DNA of 64,000 nucleotides from a virus, in the IMG/VR virus record IMGVR_UViG_3300028048_000053, positions 34,692 to 98,691 of that record, one strand, 5' to 3'. The position numbers and the translations under genes are program-made. A model generated the notes under the pieces. The model worked only from the letters and a program-made list of their open reading frames with translations, did no database searches and was not told the DNA's origin. This document shows positions 14,187 through 61,275 of the stretch, one piece after another. Each line of letters opens with the position of its first letter. Within the stretch, counting starts at the first letter, position 1.

Positions 14187-14837
14187 ATGGCATACATCTA
14201 TTTAATCACAAACAAAACTAATTAGAAACAATATGTAGGAAAAACCCAAAATAGTATAGAATAGCGGTGGAAAGAACACTGTCGAGATTATAAAAAGGAG
14301 CATAACGAAAAACGTCCATTGTATGCGGCTATGCGTAAGTATGGTATTGAAAATTTTGAAATTTCATTAATTGAAGAAGTTTCTCCTGAGTAGAACCTTG
14401 AAGAGCGTGAAATTTACTGGATAGACTATTATCAAACTTATAACAAGGGCTATAATGCTACTATTGGAGGAGACGGTAAATCTTTTTTGCCATATAAAAC
14501 TATACTAGAGTTATGGAATCAAGGACTAAATTGTAAACAAATTGGAGAACAGCTACATTGCGATGCCGGGTGGATTGGTGTGATTTTAAAAAGTCATAAT
14601 GTCTCCCCCCAAGAAATTTAGAATAAGTCCTTTGTTGATAAGAAAATTCGAGTTTGTCAAATAGATAAAAAAACAAATTAGATTATAGCAATTTTTCCAT
14701 CCTATAGAAGTGCCGCTCAAGCAATGCTTGATAAAAAATTAACAAATTGTAAAGTTGGTACTGGAGCTGCTCATATAGGAGAAGTTTGCTCAAACAAAAG
14801 AAAGACCTTTGCAGGCTTTAAATGGAAAAAGGCTTAA
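14187..14837 (+). CDS. GIY-YIG homing endonuclease (reads through 5 in-frame TAG)
   Basis: AYIYLITNKTN-TAG-KQYVGKT...RWKEH GIY-YIG motif plus a C-terminal NUMOD-like region; continuous frame from ATG 14187 to TAA 14835-14837. Confidence 0.75.
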
Positions 14838-14902
14838 AAAACGGCCTATTTAATCAAATTACGGTCTTGAAACAAGACTAAGAGAAAAAGGAGATTTAAA
14901 AT

Positions 14903-15346
14903 ATGAACAAGTTTATGAACGGCCTCAAGAATGAGTCCAACTACACCTATACTGAGAACGGCGCCTTGACTTACAAGTCTACCCTCAACGGTCTGCTCGA
15001 CCTGTTCGCTCTCGGTGGTGCGTATCGTACCCGTACCGATGCCGATGTCATCAATCTCTTTAAGAAAGCCTTTGAAGAGAATGAAACTTATGCTCTCAAG
15101 TGTCTTTTTTATCTCCGTGATATTAGAGGCGGACAGGGAGAGCGTAGATTTTTTCGTGTGGTTATTAAGTGGCTTGCTAATAATCATCCGGACGTTATAC
15201 GACGTAATCTAAAATATATTCCAGAGTATGGTCGATATGACGATTTATATATTTTTATAGACACCCCTGTTGAAGAGGATATGTGGAATTTTTTGTGCCA
15301 TGAAATAGCTGAAGGAATTAAAATTATCGAAAGCATTAAAGAATAA
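14903..15346 (+). CDS. N-terminal part of a split DUF2828/vWA-like gene (TENGA motif)
   Basis: 147 aa, NxxYTYTENGALTYKST motif. The vWA-containing C-terminal part resumes at 16240 after an inserted HTH plus GIY-YIG cassette. Confidence 0.55.
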   Translation: MNKFMNGLKNESNYTYTENGALTYKSTLNGLLDLFALGGAYRTRTDADVINLFKKAFEENETYALKCLFYLRDIRGGQGERRFFRVVIKWLANNHPDVIRRNLKYIPEYGRYDDLYIFIDTPVEEDMWNFLCHEIAEGIKIIESIKE

Positions 15347-15409
15347 TTCTTGGACAGTTTTAAACAAAATGTTTAATCAAAATTTTATATACAGTAGGAG
15401 GATGACAAC

Positions 15410-15589
15410 ATGACTCTTCAAGAAGTGTGTAAAATTTTGGGAAAGAGTGAAAAAACTCTAATTTATAGTTTTAAAAGAACCTAGTTAAACCTTGCTAAAA
15501 AAGGTATCATCCTTCTAAAAACTGGTGTAGGCAAAAATGCCGACTATCAAATAACCTATGAGGAGAATGATACAAATGAAAAAGGATAA
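15410..15589 (+). CDS. small HTH-like protein, leader of a mobile endonuclease cassette (one in-frame TAG at codon 25)
   Basis: MTLQEVCKILGKSEKTLIYSFKRT-TAG-LNLAKKGII; its paralog at 35500 has a TAG at the identical codon. Confidence 0.5.
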
Positions 15590-16235
15590 TACAATATTCA
15601 AAGTATATATTCATAAATTGAAAATAGATGGAAGAGTCTATGTTGGATAGACGAGTTCATCTATGGAAGAGCGCGCTGGCAGTAACGGATATAGATATAA
15701 ACATTGCACCAAATTTTGGCACGCGATTTAGAAATATGGGTGGGAGTCTTTTGAGCATATATTAATTAAGGATGGATTAACTTTAGACGAAGCAAATCAG
15801 TTAGAAGATGAACTGATATTAAAATATAATAGCATTGAAAATGGATTTAATATTAATCGCGGTGGACTAAATCATCTTTGGACAGATGAATAGCGAAAAA
15901 TAATGTCCGAAAGAAATATGGGAGAAAAAAATCCCAATTACGGGAAACCGCGTTCCGAAGAGACCAAGAAAAAAATAGGAGCTGCAAATGCAGTTGCTCA
16001 ACTGGGAAAGCATCACTCTGAAGAAACCAAAAAGAAAATGAGCAAATCTCATCGTAAGCAAGAACCTATTTTATGTGTCGAAACGGGAAATATTTATAAC
16101 GATGCGATAGAAGCCGCAGAATCCATTGGTAAAAAAGCTTCTGCAGCGAATCATATTAGAGAAGTTTGCGATGGTAAGAGATTGTCGGCTTATTCATATA
16201 CATGGAAATATCTTGACAAAGATAAAGGAGAATAA
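15576..16235 (+). CDS. GIY-YIG homing endonuclease (3 in-frame TAG, one at the YVG-Q-T motif position)
   Basis: VYIHKL..GRVYVG-TAG-TS ... AI-TAG-KYGWESFEH; C-terminal NUMOD-like repeats; ends TAA 16233-16235. Confidence 0.7.
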
Positions 16236-58406: not shown

Positions 58407-58505
58407 TTTTAGGCCAAAAGCTGTTAGTTTATATTTTATAAAACCGATATTATATCGGGAGGAATTTTCTTCCTCCCGATAATTTATATATGGAGGCTTT
58501 GTAAG

Positions 58506-59435
58506 ATGCCAGTAATTGATTTATTAGGAAAGAAATTTGGTAAATTAACAGTTTTAGAAAGAGACATGTCTAAAACCGGTGGAGCAGCATATTGGATTTG
58601 TAAATGTGACTGTGGTAATATTATTTCTACAAGAGGAACATCTTTACGGGACGGCTCAAAACAAGATTGTGGATGCATAAATAAGGAAAAAAGAAGAAAT
58701 AATGTTGACATTACAAAATATATAGGTTAGCGCTTTGGAAGATTCGTTGTTAAAGAAAGAGATCTTACTAAACCTATAGGACATGGAAATTCTTCTTGGT
58801 GGATATGTCAATGCGACTGTGGAAATATTAAGTCCTGTGATATTACACAATTAAAACGAGGAAATATTTAGTCTTGTGGTTGTTTAAAAACTGAAATGTT
58901 AAACAAAAGAAATATAAAGGATATAACAAATTAGCGTTTTGGAATGGTAGTAGCAAAAAAAAATACTTATCAAAAAAGCACCCACAATAGCTACATTTGG
59001 TAGTGTGAGTGTGATTGCGGTAATACTGAGTATTTTGTATCAGCAGAATCACTATTATCTGGAAAGATTCATTCTTGCGGTTGTAATACAAGATCCTATG
59101 GAGAACGAAAGATAAATGAATTATTGCTACAAAATAATATATTATTTATTCAAGAATTTAAATTTTTGGATTCTGATATTTCAAAATTAAGATATGATTT
59201 TGCTATTGTCGATAATAACTATAAGCCAATACGCTTAATTGAATTTGATGGAGAATAGCATTTTAAGCCAAAAGAATGTTTTGGCGGAGAAAAAGCTTTT
59301 CAAATATAGTAGCAGCACGATATGTTAAAAAATCAATATGCTAAAAAAAAGAATATTCCATTAGTACGTATCCCCTACTATGAATTAAACAATATTACAT
59401 TAGAAATGATAATGGGGGATGAATTTTTAACATGA
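58506..59435 (+). CDS. Zn-ribbon plus PD-(D/E)xK (DUF559-like) nuclease, third paralog (about 9 in-frame TAG including two consecutive)
   Basis: Single frame from ATG 58506 to TGA 59433-59435; W.CKCDCGN..DCGC ribbons x3; IEFDGE-TAG-HF ... QI-TAG-TAG-QHD ... PLVRIPYYELNNITL. Confidence 0.6.
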
Positions 59436-60259
59436 CTATATTATATATTTTACTAGGTCTAATAGCGGGTAGTCTTGGGGTATATCTGCTATTAAGGCCC
59501 AAATTAAAATTAACAGTTTAGAAAAATCTTGCTATTGAGTAGGAGAACCAAAAGCTTGAAATCGAAAATGCTAATTTAAATAGCATGAAGAAAGATAAAG
59601 AAGAGTTATTGCACTAGGCCGAAAAAGAATATCTTGCCATGGGTGCCAAAAGAGAGGAAATAAGAGAATCTCTTGAGAATCTAAAGGAGACGCAAACCAA
59701 GGCTGCTGACGATATTTTTGTTTTGGCGAGACAAAATGCTGAGTAGGCTTTTGATAATGAAGTTGAAAGAATTAATCAAGAGCTAGAAGCCAATAGAGAG
59801 CAAGCCGACAAGGAATACAAACAAACTTTAAAAGAGTTAGTTGAAGATTTTTCTAAAGAGGCTGCGGCCGCAGGTTTAGAGCTCTCTAAGCTCAGACAAG
59901 AGTTGGCAGAAACAAAGTCTATAGTAGATAGCGCGGTTGCCGACCGCAAACGAGCCATCGAAATGGAAGAAAAAAGCGACTTTTATAAGCTATAGCTATC
60001 TCACGAAGATATATAGGAGATAGCTAAATTAAGAGAAGTATTACCCTATCTCCGGGACAAAGAGCCTTTAAATAAGGTTATCTATAAAGTATATTATGAA
60101 AAGCCATATACCGATTTGGTTGGCCGAGTATTAGGATAGGGTAAGCGCACTGGTATTTATAAAATTACCAATACTAAAAACGGTATGTGTTATGTGGGAC
60201 AAGCGGTCAAATATCGGCCGGTGAAAAACTTTTCCTAGTTGCTGCTAGGGGTCATTTAA
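59432..60259 (+). CDS. membrane-anchored coiled-coil protein; its last roughly 35 codons encode an N-terminal GIY-YIG motif fragment
   Basis: N-terminal TM helix (MTILYILLGLIAGSLGVYLLL), long coiled coil, then ...GKRTGIYKITNTKNGMCYVGQAVKYR; about 8 in-frame TAG; TAA 60257-60259. Confidence 0.45.
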
Positions 60260-60369
60260 TATTAAATGGCTAACGAGGAATGATATTAAAATATAGAATC
60301 TCGTGGGAAATTTTGTATAATTCATCTTTCACAAGCTTTAAATAGATATGAAGGGTGGTTGAAAATAAC

Positions 60370-61275
60370 ATGATTACAAATGTTAAAGATTTAACTAATA
60401 ATACAGGGATTTATAAAATTAATTATTCTAATGGTAAAATTTATATTGGATAGGCTCTATCCTTTAGAAGTAGAGCTAATGAGCACAATTCAAAAAACGC
60501 ATATCCTTGTGACAAAGCTTTAAAAAAATATGATGCTGTAATGGAGATATTACAAGAAAATATTCCCATAGACTAGTTGGACATTCTTGAAGAATTTTGG
60601 ATTTCAAAATTTAATGCCACAAATAAAGAAATAGGATATAATATTTTATCTGGTGGAAATGCCAGTGGAAAACGTGGAATTGAAAATTAGAACGCAACGT
60701 TTAAAACTCAGGAAGAATTAAATGAAATATTAAATCTAATTATAAATCATACCGAATTGTCATATGATGATATAGCAAAAAGATTTAATATAAATAAAAA
60801 TACTGTTTTAAATATTGCAAAGGGAAATACTTACAAACAAGAAAATTTAAAATATCCATTACGTTTAAATAATCATGATTGTCTTAAAAAAGATAAAATA
60901 AGTGACTATTTTGAAACGGAAGAACAATTAATTTTATTTAAAAATGATTTAAAGTTTCGATGGGATTTATCCTTAGAAGAAGATATTCCAAATAAATGGA
61001 ATATTCCAAAAAGAGTTTGTAGACAAATCAACCATGGAGAATTATTTAACGAATACGGGACTTTTACGTATCCAATTCGCTCTAAGTCACATAGCCTAAT
61101 GGATTAGCAATAGATAAAAAATATATTAAATTCATTAAGAACTACTAGTAAGTCCATGGAAGTGATAGGTTTAGAAAATGGTGGATTACATAGAAACACT
61201 ATTAGTTAGATTAATTTAGGAAAAAAATATCCAATAAAAGGGTATGATTATCCAGCCAGAAAAAAGAAAATATAA
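60370..61275 (+). CDS. GIY-YIG homing endonuclease (about 8 in-frame TAG)
   Basis: TGIYKINYSNGKIYIG-TAG-ALSFRSRANEH ... EFWISKFNATNKEIGYNIL; C-terminal NUMOD-like region; TAA 61273-61275. Confidence 0.6.

Follow-up and report, generated by a model that had tools for sequence, protein, structure and literature searches.

Gene content of the window and reading of TAG as glutamine

Here we analysed the distribution of in-frame TAG codons among the genes of a 64,000-nucleotide stretch of viral DNA (positions 34,692 to 98,691 of IMG/VR record IMGVR_UViG_3300028048_000053), the whole of which is called the window below. Genes were modelled as open reading frames (ORFs) delimited by TAA or TGA, with starts set by hand after reading the translations, and the resulting 62 genes (15,584 codons) contain 89 in-frame TAG in total. 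Annotation with Pfam and PHROG confirmed most of the labels given in an earlier note on this DNA. The genes include those for topoisomerase II and LigA, a group of RNA-repair-like and phosphatase genes, an MVP-like and an SPFH protein, a lysis cassette, a tail block on the minus strand and several homing endonucleases, with an HNH endonuclease (Pfam/PHROG) annotated besides those listed in Table 1. The window is without a capsid module. What the earlier note took for a single topoisomerase II gene (49378-54839) is instead a GyrB-like gene interrupted by 1.25 kb of inserted DNA and, after it, a GyrA-like gene, and its 818-aa repeat protein (30804-33254), correctly described as devoid of TAG, is 816 aa long and carries MVP-like domains (Pfam). 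The distribution of TAG among all these genes is strongly uneven, and taken together our sequence comparisons indicate that TAG is barred by purifying selection from a conserved group of genes whose distribution follows a repeated sigma-A-type promoter family.

The evidence that TAG is read as glutamine comes from several sources. ORFs cover 0.663 of the window in the standard code, a share that becomes 0.871 if TAG is taken as sense and 0.745 if TGA is, the coverage with TAA read through being high in every AT-rich locus and hence uninformative. The TAG-containing ORFs are interrupted by TAG alone, with no TAA or TGA, and the Pfam matches of the GIY-YIG, PhoH, NAGPA, SPOR and Amidase_2 domains extend across TAG positions. 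For the PhoH protein, an alignment to PDB 3b85 places TAG (residue 378) opposite the Gln that is conserved in the GD-TQ-DL motif, and in the NAGPA/SPOR protein one TAG column, in the SPOR domain, holds Gln in 118 of 120 homologues and another in 74, Gln being found at three further TAG positions in the closest homologues. Orthologues in related contigs show Gln enriched 5-10 fold opposite TAG, and Ser not enriched. Decay is frequent among homing endonucleases, and the interrupted ORFs might on that ground be taken for decaying pseudogenes rather than recoded genes. This explanation is already contradicted, and we consider it practically negligible: TAG is the sole interrupting stop, full-length domain matches cross the TAG positions, these positions align with Gln, the orthologues of relatives are likewise open except for TAG, and a cognate tRNA(CUA) is encoded. 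Judging from these alignments, the window is that of a large phage of genetic code 15 (TAG = Gln) with its own amber suppressor tRNA.

Partition of TAG among genes

The density of TAG per gene is heterogeneous (chi2 = 203.5, df = 61, p = 3e-17 for the 62 genes), a heterogeneity reached by none of 100,000 multinomial shuffles, and 13 of the 27 genes with at least 250 codons have no TAG, the expectation being 3.7. The partition reported in the earlier note is therefore real, the counts staying far from a uniform density after the genes were delimited. Expressed per 1000 codons, TAG amounts to 18.0 in the PhoH and DUF4041 genes, 16.3 in the lysis cassette, 16.2 in the endonucleases, 4.1 in the minus-strand block, 1.4 in DNA replication and repair genes, and 0 in the set formed by the RNA-repair, phosphatase, MVP-like and SPFH genes. 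For this last set the codon counts bear out the earlier note, with zero TAG in each of the 816-aa protein, SPFH, the phosphatases, Thg1-like and RNA ligase genes. The genes for the two topoisomerase subunits and LigA have no TAG among their 61 Gln codons (P = 4e-7). The 3-10 TAG that each homing endonuclease gene was said to carry hold for most of them, the exceptions being the GIY-YIG gene inside the GyrB split, with none, and the LAGLIDADG gene, with one.

The RNA-repair-like set, comprising the Thg1-like, RNA ligase, AAA_33 kinase and three metallophosphatase genes together with an RlaP-like nucleotidyltransferase at 34422-35231 (a weak match), is wholly free of TAG and adjoins a 17-gene tRNA array. 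The SPFH gene lies 7 kb downstream of the MVP-like gene.

The amber suppressor tRNA

The tRNA(CUA) gene was found with ARAGORN and confirmed with Rfam (Table 1). Its acceptor stem resembles that of tRNAGln. Every copy has the discriminator G73, shared with the tRNAGln genes of the window (alignment), the 1:72 pair is weak, being G1:U72 here and U1:A72 in relatives, and the central anticodon base is U35. The variable loop is not that of a class I tRNA, a ~20-nt insertion folding into a predicted extra 5-bp hairpin. The cloverleaf with the extra hairpin is predicted in all four distinct tRNA(CUA) sequences (94-96 nt in total), and the extra-arm stem shows a compensatory change in L025 (CC/GG to GG/CC). 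A further tRNA(CUA), with the usual length, is present in three of the IMG/VR contigs that hold the long-arm form. Insertion of Ser, Leu or Tyr at TAG, suggested by the long variable arm and G73, is an assignment that we rejected, the acceptor stem being tRNAGln-like and Gln, not Ser, being enriched opposite TAG. We found no specific description of long-arm phage suppressor tRNAs in a literature search, and no release factor or synthetase gene in the window.

The suppressor tRNA is preceded, at a distance of 135 nt, by a promoter of the repeated family (12711-12739), and a further copy lies ~320 nt more upstream. Rfam at its gathering threshold detected only tRNAs over the window. A tRNA-like gene at 10402-10473, detected by Rfam (49 bits) and missed by ARAGORN, has an irregular T-arm region and, by eye, an apparent UGU anticodon. 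A wider DNA pattern for suppressor tRNAs gave extra matches that proved to be chance, non-tRNA sequences.

Promoters, terminators and transcription units

The promoter family, with the consensus TTGATT-N17-TATAAT-ATATATAGAAA, is present in 16 plus-strand copies, against 1.25 expected by chance, and its spacer and downstream region are also conserved. Many of these copies also score as top sigma-70-type sites in a generic scan, and the family occurs in relatives as well, standard-code ones included. Nine copies are within the tRNA array. The next feature is a protein gene for 11 copies, and in 9 of these 11 it is a TAG-free gene. Transcription units headed by the family have 1.9 TAG per 1000 codons, compared with 13.4 in the other plus-strand units (Fisher p = 2e-13), and their value is 0.6 when the recently inserted endonuclease is left out.

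The lysis cassette is bracketed by two strong terminator-like hairpins, between which no family promoter was found, and two further TAG-rich ORFs begin directly after strong hairpins. Strong hairpins followed by TTTATATAT lie immediately ahead of TAG-rich ORFs at 17375-17429, 45763-45806 and 58453-58496, and also at 8608 and 15384, with TTTATATAT directly fused to GGAGG in two cases. This motif was considered as a distinct 'late' promoter and is not callable as such, because those two copies adjoin the Shine-Dalgarno sequence and are too near to it for a -10 element. The GGAGG ribosome-binding sites are strong, and judged by them the host is probably a Firmicute.

Three small proteins (38389-38673, 58140-58406 and 62753-63103) are encoded just downstream of sigma-A-type promoter sites, two of which are family copies, and may be regarded as candidate transcription regulators. 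Two of them have weak winged-helix matches in Pfam, the only matches that Pfam gave for the remaining small ORFs. The third, at 58140-58406, has no Pfam match and is 91% identical in contigs whose GyrA is just 44-45% identical.

Conservation of the partition in relatives

Searches of IMG/VR yielded 23 loci with a relative of GyrA (39-99% identity) and 13 with a relative of the MVP-like protein (64-80%), and the read-through test showed these to be a mixture of TAG-recoded and standard-code loci. Among GenBank phages, a nucleotide search with 49342-57847 gave no match, and the matches found in protein searches with GyrA and MVP were all below 40% identity. GyrA has no TAG in 20 of the 20 relatives with adequate coverage and MVP none in 12 of 13; GyrB has none, with one exception, LigA has 0-1, and the Thg1, DUF2828, RNA ligase, phosphatase and kinase genes have none. 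The relatives of genes that are TAG-rich in the window carry TAG too: recoded relatives have 4-16 TAG in the aligned stretch of DUF4041 and 8-16 in whole ORFs, where standard-code relatives have 0, most recoded relatives have 2-5 in PhoH, and the tail genes upstream of MVP have 4-12. That the same families are TAG-free or TAG-rich across diverged recoded relatives argues for selection rather than history, and the TAG-free state is thus a selected and conserved trait of certain gene families and not the mark of recent import.

The MVP-like protein is 64-80% identical in IMG/VR contigs of 16-400 kb and ~39% in megaphage records of 460-735 kb, and it is better conserved than GyrA of the same contig (75% versus 45%).

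Endonuclease insertions and split genes

Compared with a relative (L023, 97-99% identical), the window has three extra segments of ~1 kb, at 55069-56062, 58391-59423 and 60203-61456, each of which holds an endonuclease gene with 6-9 TAG. Downstream of the last of these, a stretch of 200 nt is only 74% identical to L023, which fits co-conversion around a homing site. The DUF4041 gene that this insertion splits is a single ORF in L023 and in eight other relatives. The DUF2828 gene was likewise annotated in two parts, with the GIY-YIG/NUMOD3 endonuclease (15558-16235) between them.

GyrB is a single ORF in L009 and is split in the window by the endonuclease-bearing insertion right after a conserved RGK. 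Because the second part begins with its own ATG, the split could be either an intron or a split of the T4 39/60 type. Rfam searches at E values up to 1 gave no group I intron model at 50600-52000, 60150-61500 or 15250-16400, in searches whose model may fail on ORF-bearing introns. The first GyrB segment is 79% identical to that of standard-code L011 and 44% to that of L009, whose GyrA is 82% identical, values indicating a mosaic ancestry of this gene.

In recoded L001, L009, L012, L013, L017, L021, L022 and L023 the DUF4041 gene holds 18-32 Gln-type codons, of which 8-16 are TAG, against 11 in a standard-code relative (L019/L020), which hints that TAG was gained at positions formerly not Gln. 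DUF4041 is the foremost candidate for positive selection of TAG.

Table 1. Positions of genes and signals in the window, with TAG counts and supporting matches
Feature	Position	Strand	TAG	Remarks
Thg1-like	11598-12395		0	
Amber suppressor tRNA(CUA)	12869-12962	+		ARAGORN; Rfam tRNA, 53 bits
Long-arm tRNA(CUA) homologues	L024 3019-3112(-); L025 78-173; L027 8521-8614; L028 6364-6457			
GIY-YIG endonuclease	14187-14837	+	5	Pfam GIY-YIG match covers three TAG
GIY-YIG/NUMOD3 endonuclease	15558-16235	+	3	Between two DUF2828 gene parts
CDCGN-repeat endonuclease	17455-18426	+	7	Paralogue matches PHROG HNH/homing endonuclease families
Minus-strand ORFs without TAG (examples)	22151-22918; 25086-26207; 29554-30255	-	0	Codon counts
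Tail protein	23393-24979	-	4	PHROG 5302
Tail fibre protein	26209-27786	-	6	PHROG tail-fibre families
MVP-like 816-aa protein	30804-33254	+	0	Pfam MVP_shoulder, Vault_3; CAG 29 / CAA 1
LAGLIDADG endonuclease	35669-36520		1	
Metallophosphatase	36510-37337		0	
RNA ligase	39062-40291	+	0	
SPFH	40317-41264	+	0	CAG 14 / CAA 0
Metallophosphatase	41643-42386	+	0	
AAA_33 kinase	42530-43096	+	0	
Second metallophosphatase	43077-43631	+	0	
PIN-PhoH protein	44500-45774	+	5	Pfam
NAGPA/SPOR cell-wall enzyme	45816-46667	+	7	10 in stop-to-stop ORF; Pfam
Amidase_2 endolysin	46674-47555	+	4	Pfam
Holin-like gene of lysis cassette	47552-47851		0	
GyrB-like exon/segment 1	49378-50697	+	0	
GIY-YIG endonuclease within GyrB split	50870-51823	+	0	21 Gln codons
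GyrB-like exon/segment 2	51944-52483	+	0	
GyrB-like gene as compared	Window 49378-52483; L009 7426-9285; L011 5979-8992			
GyrA-like gene	52494-54839	+	0	32 Gln codons
CDCGN-repeat endonuclease	55138-55935	+	9	Within insertion 55069-56062
LigA, NAD-dependent DNA ligase	55928-57847	+	0	
CDCGN-repeat endonuclease	58506-59435	+	7	Within insertion 58391-59423
DUF4041/T5orf172-like gene, part 1	59432-60259	+	8	
GIY-YIG endonuclease	60370-61275	+	6	Within insertion 60203-61456, splitting DUF4041 gene
DUF4041/T5orf172-like gene, part 2	61421-61654	+	1	
Family -10 elements	2195, 2810, 3143, 3585, 3858, 5893, 10315, 12415, 12734, 30572, 33629, 37724, 38361, 41590, 47949, 62712	+		
Family promoter (sigma-A type, TTGAAA-17-TATAAT)	12711-12739	+		Upstream of suppressor tRNA
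Family promoter	30549-30577	+		Ahead of MVP-like gene
Family promoter	41567-41595	+		Ahead of TAG-free phosphatase/kinase unit
Family promoter	47926-47954	+		Ahead of UDG-RNaseH-GyrB-GyrA-LigA unit
Strong terminator-like hairpin	45763-45789	+		Directly before lysis cassette
Strong terminator-like hairpin	47892-47922	+		After lysis cassette

Further observations

Two genes of the minus strand are strong compositional outliers with one TAG each, one at 28051-29538 (repeat-rich, with G+C content at third codon positions, GC3, of 0.78) and the other at 20334-21698 (GC3 0.58, BspA-type leucine-rich-repeat), and both probably represent mosaic modules for receptor binding. The GIY-YIG gene at 15558 and the LAGLIDADG gene at 35669 are each preceded (~15411-15557 and ~35500-35668) by a small helix-turn-helix-like ORF, MTL.EVC..LGKSE.TLI.SFKRT*, which contains one TAG. 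Also upstream of the LAGLIDADG gene, at 35290-35400, is a truncated copy of the N-terminus of the metallophosphatase encoded at 36510-37337.

A model for the exclusion of TAG

It seems to us rather probable that in this recoded phage the TAG-excluded genes are translated without suppressor activity and the TAG-bearing genes are delayed or damped. The excluded set, made up of the topoisomerase II subunits, LigA, the RNA-repair and phosphatase genes and the MVP-like and SPFH genes, mostly in family-promoter units, would have to be translated by the unmodified host machinery while the suppressor is absent or low and RF1 still stops at TAG. In the permitted set, comprising the homing endonucleases, the cell-wall hydrolases of the lysis cassette, PhoH, DUF4041/T5orf172 and some tail proteins, TAG acts as an ordinary Gln codon. 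ORFs of this second kind would give a full-length product only after charged suppressor tRNA has built up, and endonuclease and lysis functions would therefore be delayed, damped or both. The proposal of the earlier note that recoding gates late and lytic genes is in part sustained by the conserved partition, by its association with promoter type and by the terminators round the lysis cassette.

A number of observations weigh against this model. The suppressor tRNA, 33 kb away from the lysis cassette, has a promoter of the same type as the promoters of the TAG-free genes; it is separately promoted, a point that the earlier note had proposed to check, and no delay is visible for a promoter of this early-type family. 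These promoters are presumably early, a status taken solely from their match to the sigma-A consensus. Given such a promoter, any delay would have to come from accumulation, processing or charging of the tRNA or from competition with RF1, and not from late transcription of the tRNA. UDG has one TAG and RNase H two, and both are the first genes of a family-promoter unit, so that the claim of no TAG in replication genes holds for the large ones (the GyrB segments, GyrA and LigA) and fails for these two. Of the three lysis genes credited with 4-7 TAG, the NAGPA/SPOR enzyme and the amidase do have them, while the holin-like gene has none and PhoH, with five, is no lysis gene. Several ORFs of the minus-strand tail block are also TAG-free, the range stated as 1-6 being right at its upper end and really 0-6, with zero in 6 of 11 ORFs. 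Within genes, TAG positions are evenly spread with no clustering at the 5' end, and the base following TAG (+4 context) is like that following sense codons, with nothing to single the TAGs out as dedicated blocks. Finally, the near parity of TAG and CAA (79:91) in TAG-using genes suggests neutral drift wherever TAG is permitted and not an enrichment that serves gating. The parity, the even positions and the ordinary context together suggest that in most permitted genes TAG is a neutral synonym, to which DUF4041, with about twice the Gln-type codons in recoded relatives, may be an exception.

Alternative explanations

The 15 genes with two or more TAG use CAA 91, CAG 17 and TAG 79 times, TAG making up 42% of their Gln codons and CAG being in effect displaced (17 of 187). 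The TAG-free AT-rich genes (18, including GyrA, GyrB, LigA and the GIY-YIG gene at 50870) use CAA 97 and CAG 37 times, and the TAG-free genes with GC3 of 0.36 or more (19) use CAA 32 and CAG 110 times and prefer G-ending codons also for Lys, Glu and Leu. GC3 and TAG density are negatively correlated (Spearman -0.45, p = 7e-4). The lowest GC3 values of the TAG-rich genes (0.15-0.36) and the near loss of CAG from them could be explained if C-to-T pressure had simply turned CAG into TAG in the AT-richest genes, without selection on individual genes. This compositional explanation, to which we give very little credence, is already contradicted by the test within AT-rich genes, where heterogeneity remains at GC3 below 0.36 (chi2 = 89.5, df = 38, p = 5e-6). 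GyrA (GC3 0.29), the first GyrB exon (0.23), LigA (0.24) and the GIY-YIG gene at 50870 (0.18) have no TAG, and GyrA still has none in relatives where its GC3 is 0.14-0.16. The comparison of codon usage and G+C content that the earlier note had proposed thus reveals a real difference in composition, yet the partition persists in AT-rich genes, and because of this persistence and of the 61 Gln codons of topoisomerase and LigA without a single TAG, composition alone is insufficient. The raised GC3 and G-ending preferences of the 19 genes, the zero TAG of the GIY-YIG gene at 50870-51823 and the greater similarity of the first GyrB exon to standard-code L011 than to L009 suit the idea, put forward in the earlier note, that TAG-free genes came in recently from a donor with the standard code; on this view they are too young to have gained TAG. 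Such an origin is highly improbable for the set as a whole, and we reject it for the GyrA, GyrB, LigA, MVP and RNA-repair genes, which are conserved and almost always TAG-free in 13-20 relatives. The GyrA, GyrB, LigA, MVP, Thg1, DUF2828, phosphatase and kinase genes are syntenic there, with 0-2 TAG, at 40-82% identity and in mostly recoded genomes. GyrA, GyrB and LigA are as AT-rich as the TAG-rich genes (GC3 0.23-0.29), and MVP keeps CAG well above CAA in relatives even at GC3 0.20-0.30. The genes richest in TAG are the demonstrably recent arrivals, namely the three endonuclease insertions that L023 lacks. Import from a standard-code source may be plausible only for the GIY-YIG gene at 50870-51823 and the adjoining GyrB segment 1.

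The main rival to the gating model is selection on yield instead of timing, which we hold to be possible, though clearly the less likely of the two. Each TAG competes with RF1 and lowers the amount of full-length protein, and TAG would hence be purged from long, essential or abundant proteins, at whatever time these are made, and tolerated or favoured where little protein is needed, as for endonucleases and lysis enzymes. At 816, 781 and 639 aa, the longest proteins are indeed in the TAG-free set, which also shows strong codon bias, as in the MVP-like and SPFH genes, the CAG preference of the former being kept in AT-rich relatives. The correlation of TAG density with GC3, the promotion of the suppressor tRNA like an early gene and the fact that TAG-dense genes are mostly nucleases and hydrolases, which would be toxic if overproduced, all agree with yield selection. 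Tail and tail-fibre proteins speak against it, with 4-6 TAG here and 4-12 in relatives, as does the general recoding of structural genes described by Borges et al. (bioRxiv 10.1101/2021.08.26.457843), and a link to the type of transcription unit is not predicted by yield alone. A further reading, which we rate as rather unlikely, is that TAG serves as a private decoding channel and not as a clock: an early-transcribed, atypical extra-arm tRNAGln(CUA) would make the expression of endonucleases, lysis genes and DUF4041 depend on the lineage's own tRNA, and mobile endonucleases would function and spread only among TAG-recoded phages. The top rank of the newest insertions in TAG content would then be accounted for, as would the presence of twice as many Gln-type codons in DUF4041 of recoded as of standard-code relatives.

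Significance and comparison with known systems

The window adds an independent and well-resolved case of amber recoding that differs from gene to gene, from a large phage lineage without a close cultured or GenBank relative. Its clear map of transcription signals, with a 16-copy host-type promoter family and terminators round the lysis cassette, is useful for testing recoding as a regulator, and a clade in which the same genes have recoded as well as standard-code relatives lets selection against TAG be told from selection favouring it. The position of the suppressor tRNA behind an early-type promoter argues that any switch rests on accumulation or charging of the tRNA rather than on its late transcription.

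In T4-like phages, intron-borne and free-standing homing endonucleases are expressed late (I-TevI only late) by means of late promoters and of RNA folding that masks the ribosome-binding site, and in T4 gene 39/60 an endonuclease splits the gene of a topoisomerase II subunit. The window shares with them the topoisomerase-splitting endonuclease and, in our proposal, endonuclease ORFs that lie in or beside early genes and are kept from early translation. It differs in that the barrier would be in-frame TAG, the hairpins that precede three TAG-rich ORFs having at most a putative role.

In the phAss-1/'Phassvirus' gut phages (PMC10607447), with a genome of ~136 kb, TAG is present in many characteristic phage ORFs, several tRNA-Sup(CTA) are encoded, and TAG was assigned to Gln from conserved positions. 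There is no sign of sequence relatedness between these phages and the window, and topoisomerase, homing endonucleases and early genes are unmentioned there.

The closest parallel is with the code-15 phages of the crAss-like, Lak, Garnet, Amethyst, Topaz and Agate clades described by Borges et al. (bioRxiv 10.1101/2021.08.26.457843), which use the alternative code partially, their replication genes being standard and their structural and lysis genes recoded. An intron endonuclease within an early gene is preferentially recoded in these phages, recoded and standard lineages are interleaved, and the same model, in which recoding regulates late and lytic genes, was proposed. The window agrees with them in the use of TAG for Gln, a phage tRNA(CUA), standard replication genes, the recoding of some lysis and tail genes and interleaved lineages. 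GyrA, GyrB, LigA and the RNA-repair set are compatible with the standard code (0 TAG, 0-2 in relatives), UDG and RNase H being the exceptions, and the recoding of structural and lysis genes amounts to 4-7 TAG in two of the three lysis-cassette genes and in two annotated tail genes, with none in the holin-like gene and six minus-strand ORFs. Since both the pattern and the model, and with them the conceptual content, are already published, we regard the window as a sound new instance of a known phenomenon, with features specific to its lineage. It belongs to another lineage, with nearest GenBank phage matches below 40% identity and IMG/VR contigs of 30-400 kb as relatives. Its suppressor tRNA stands behind the promoter type of the TAG-free genes and not in a code-change module beside the lysis cassette, it has an extra arm, and neither a release factor nor a synthetase gene was found with it in the window; the endonuclease embedded in the topoisomerase gene is free of TAG, and inserted endonucleases are the TAG-richest genes.

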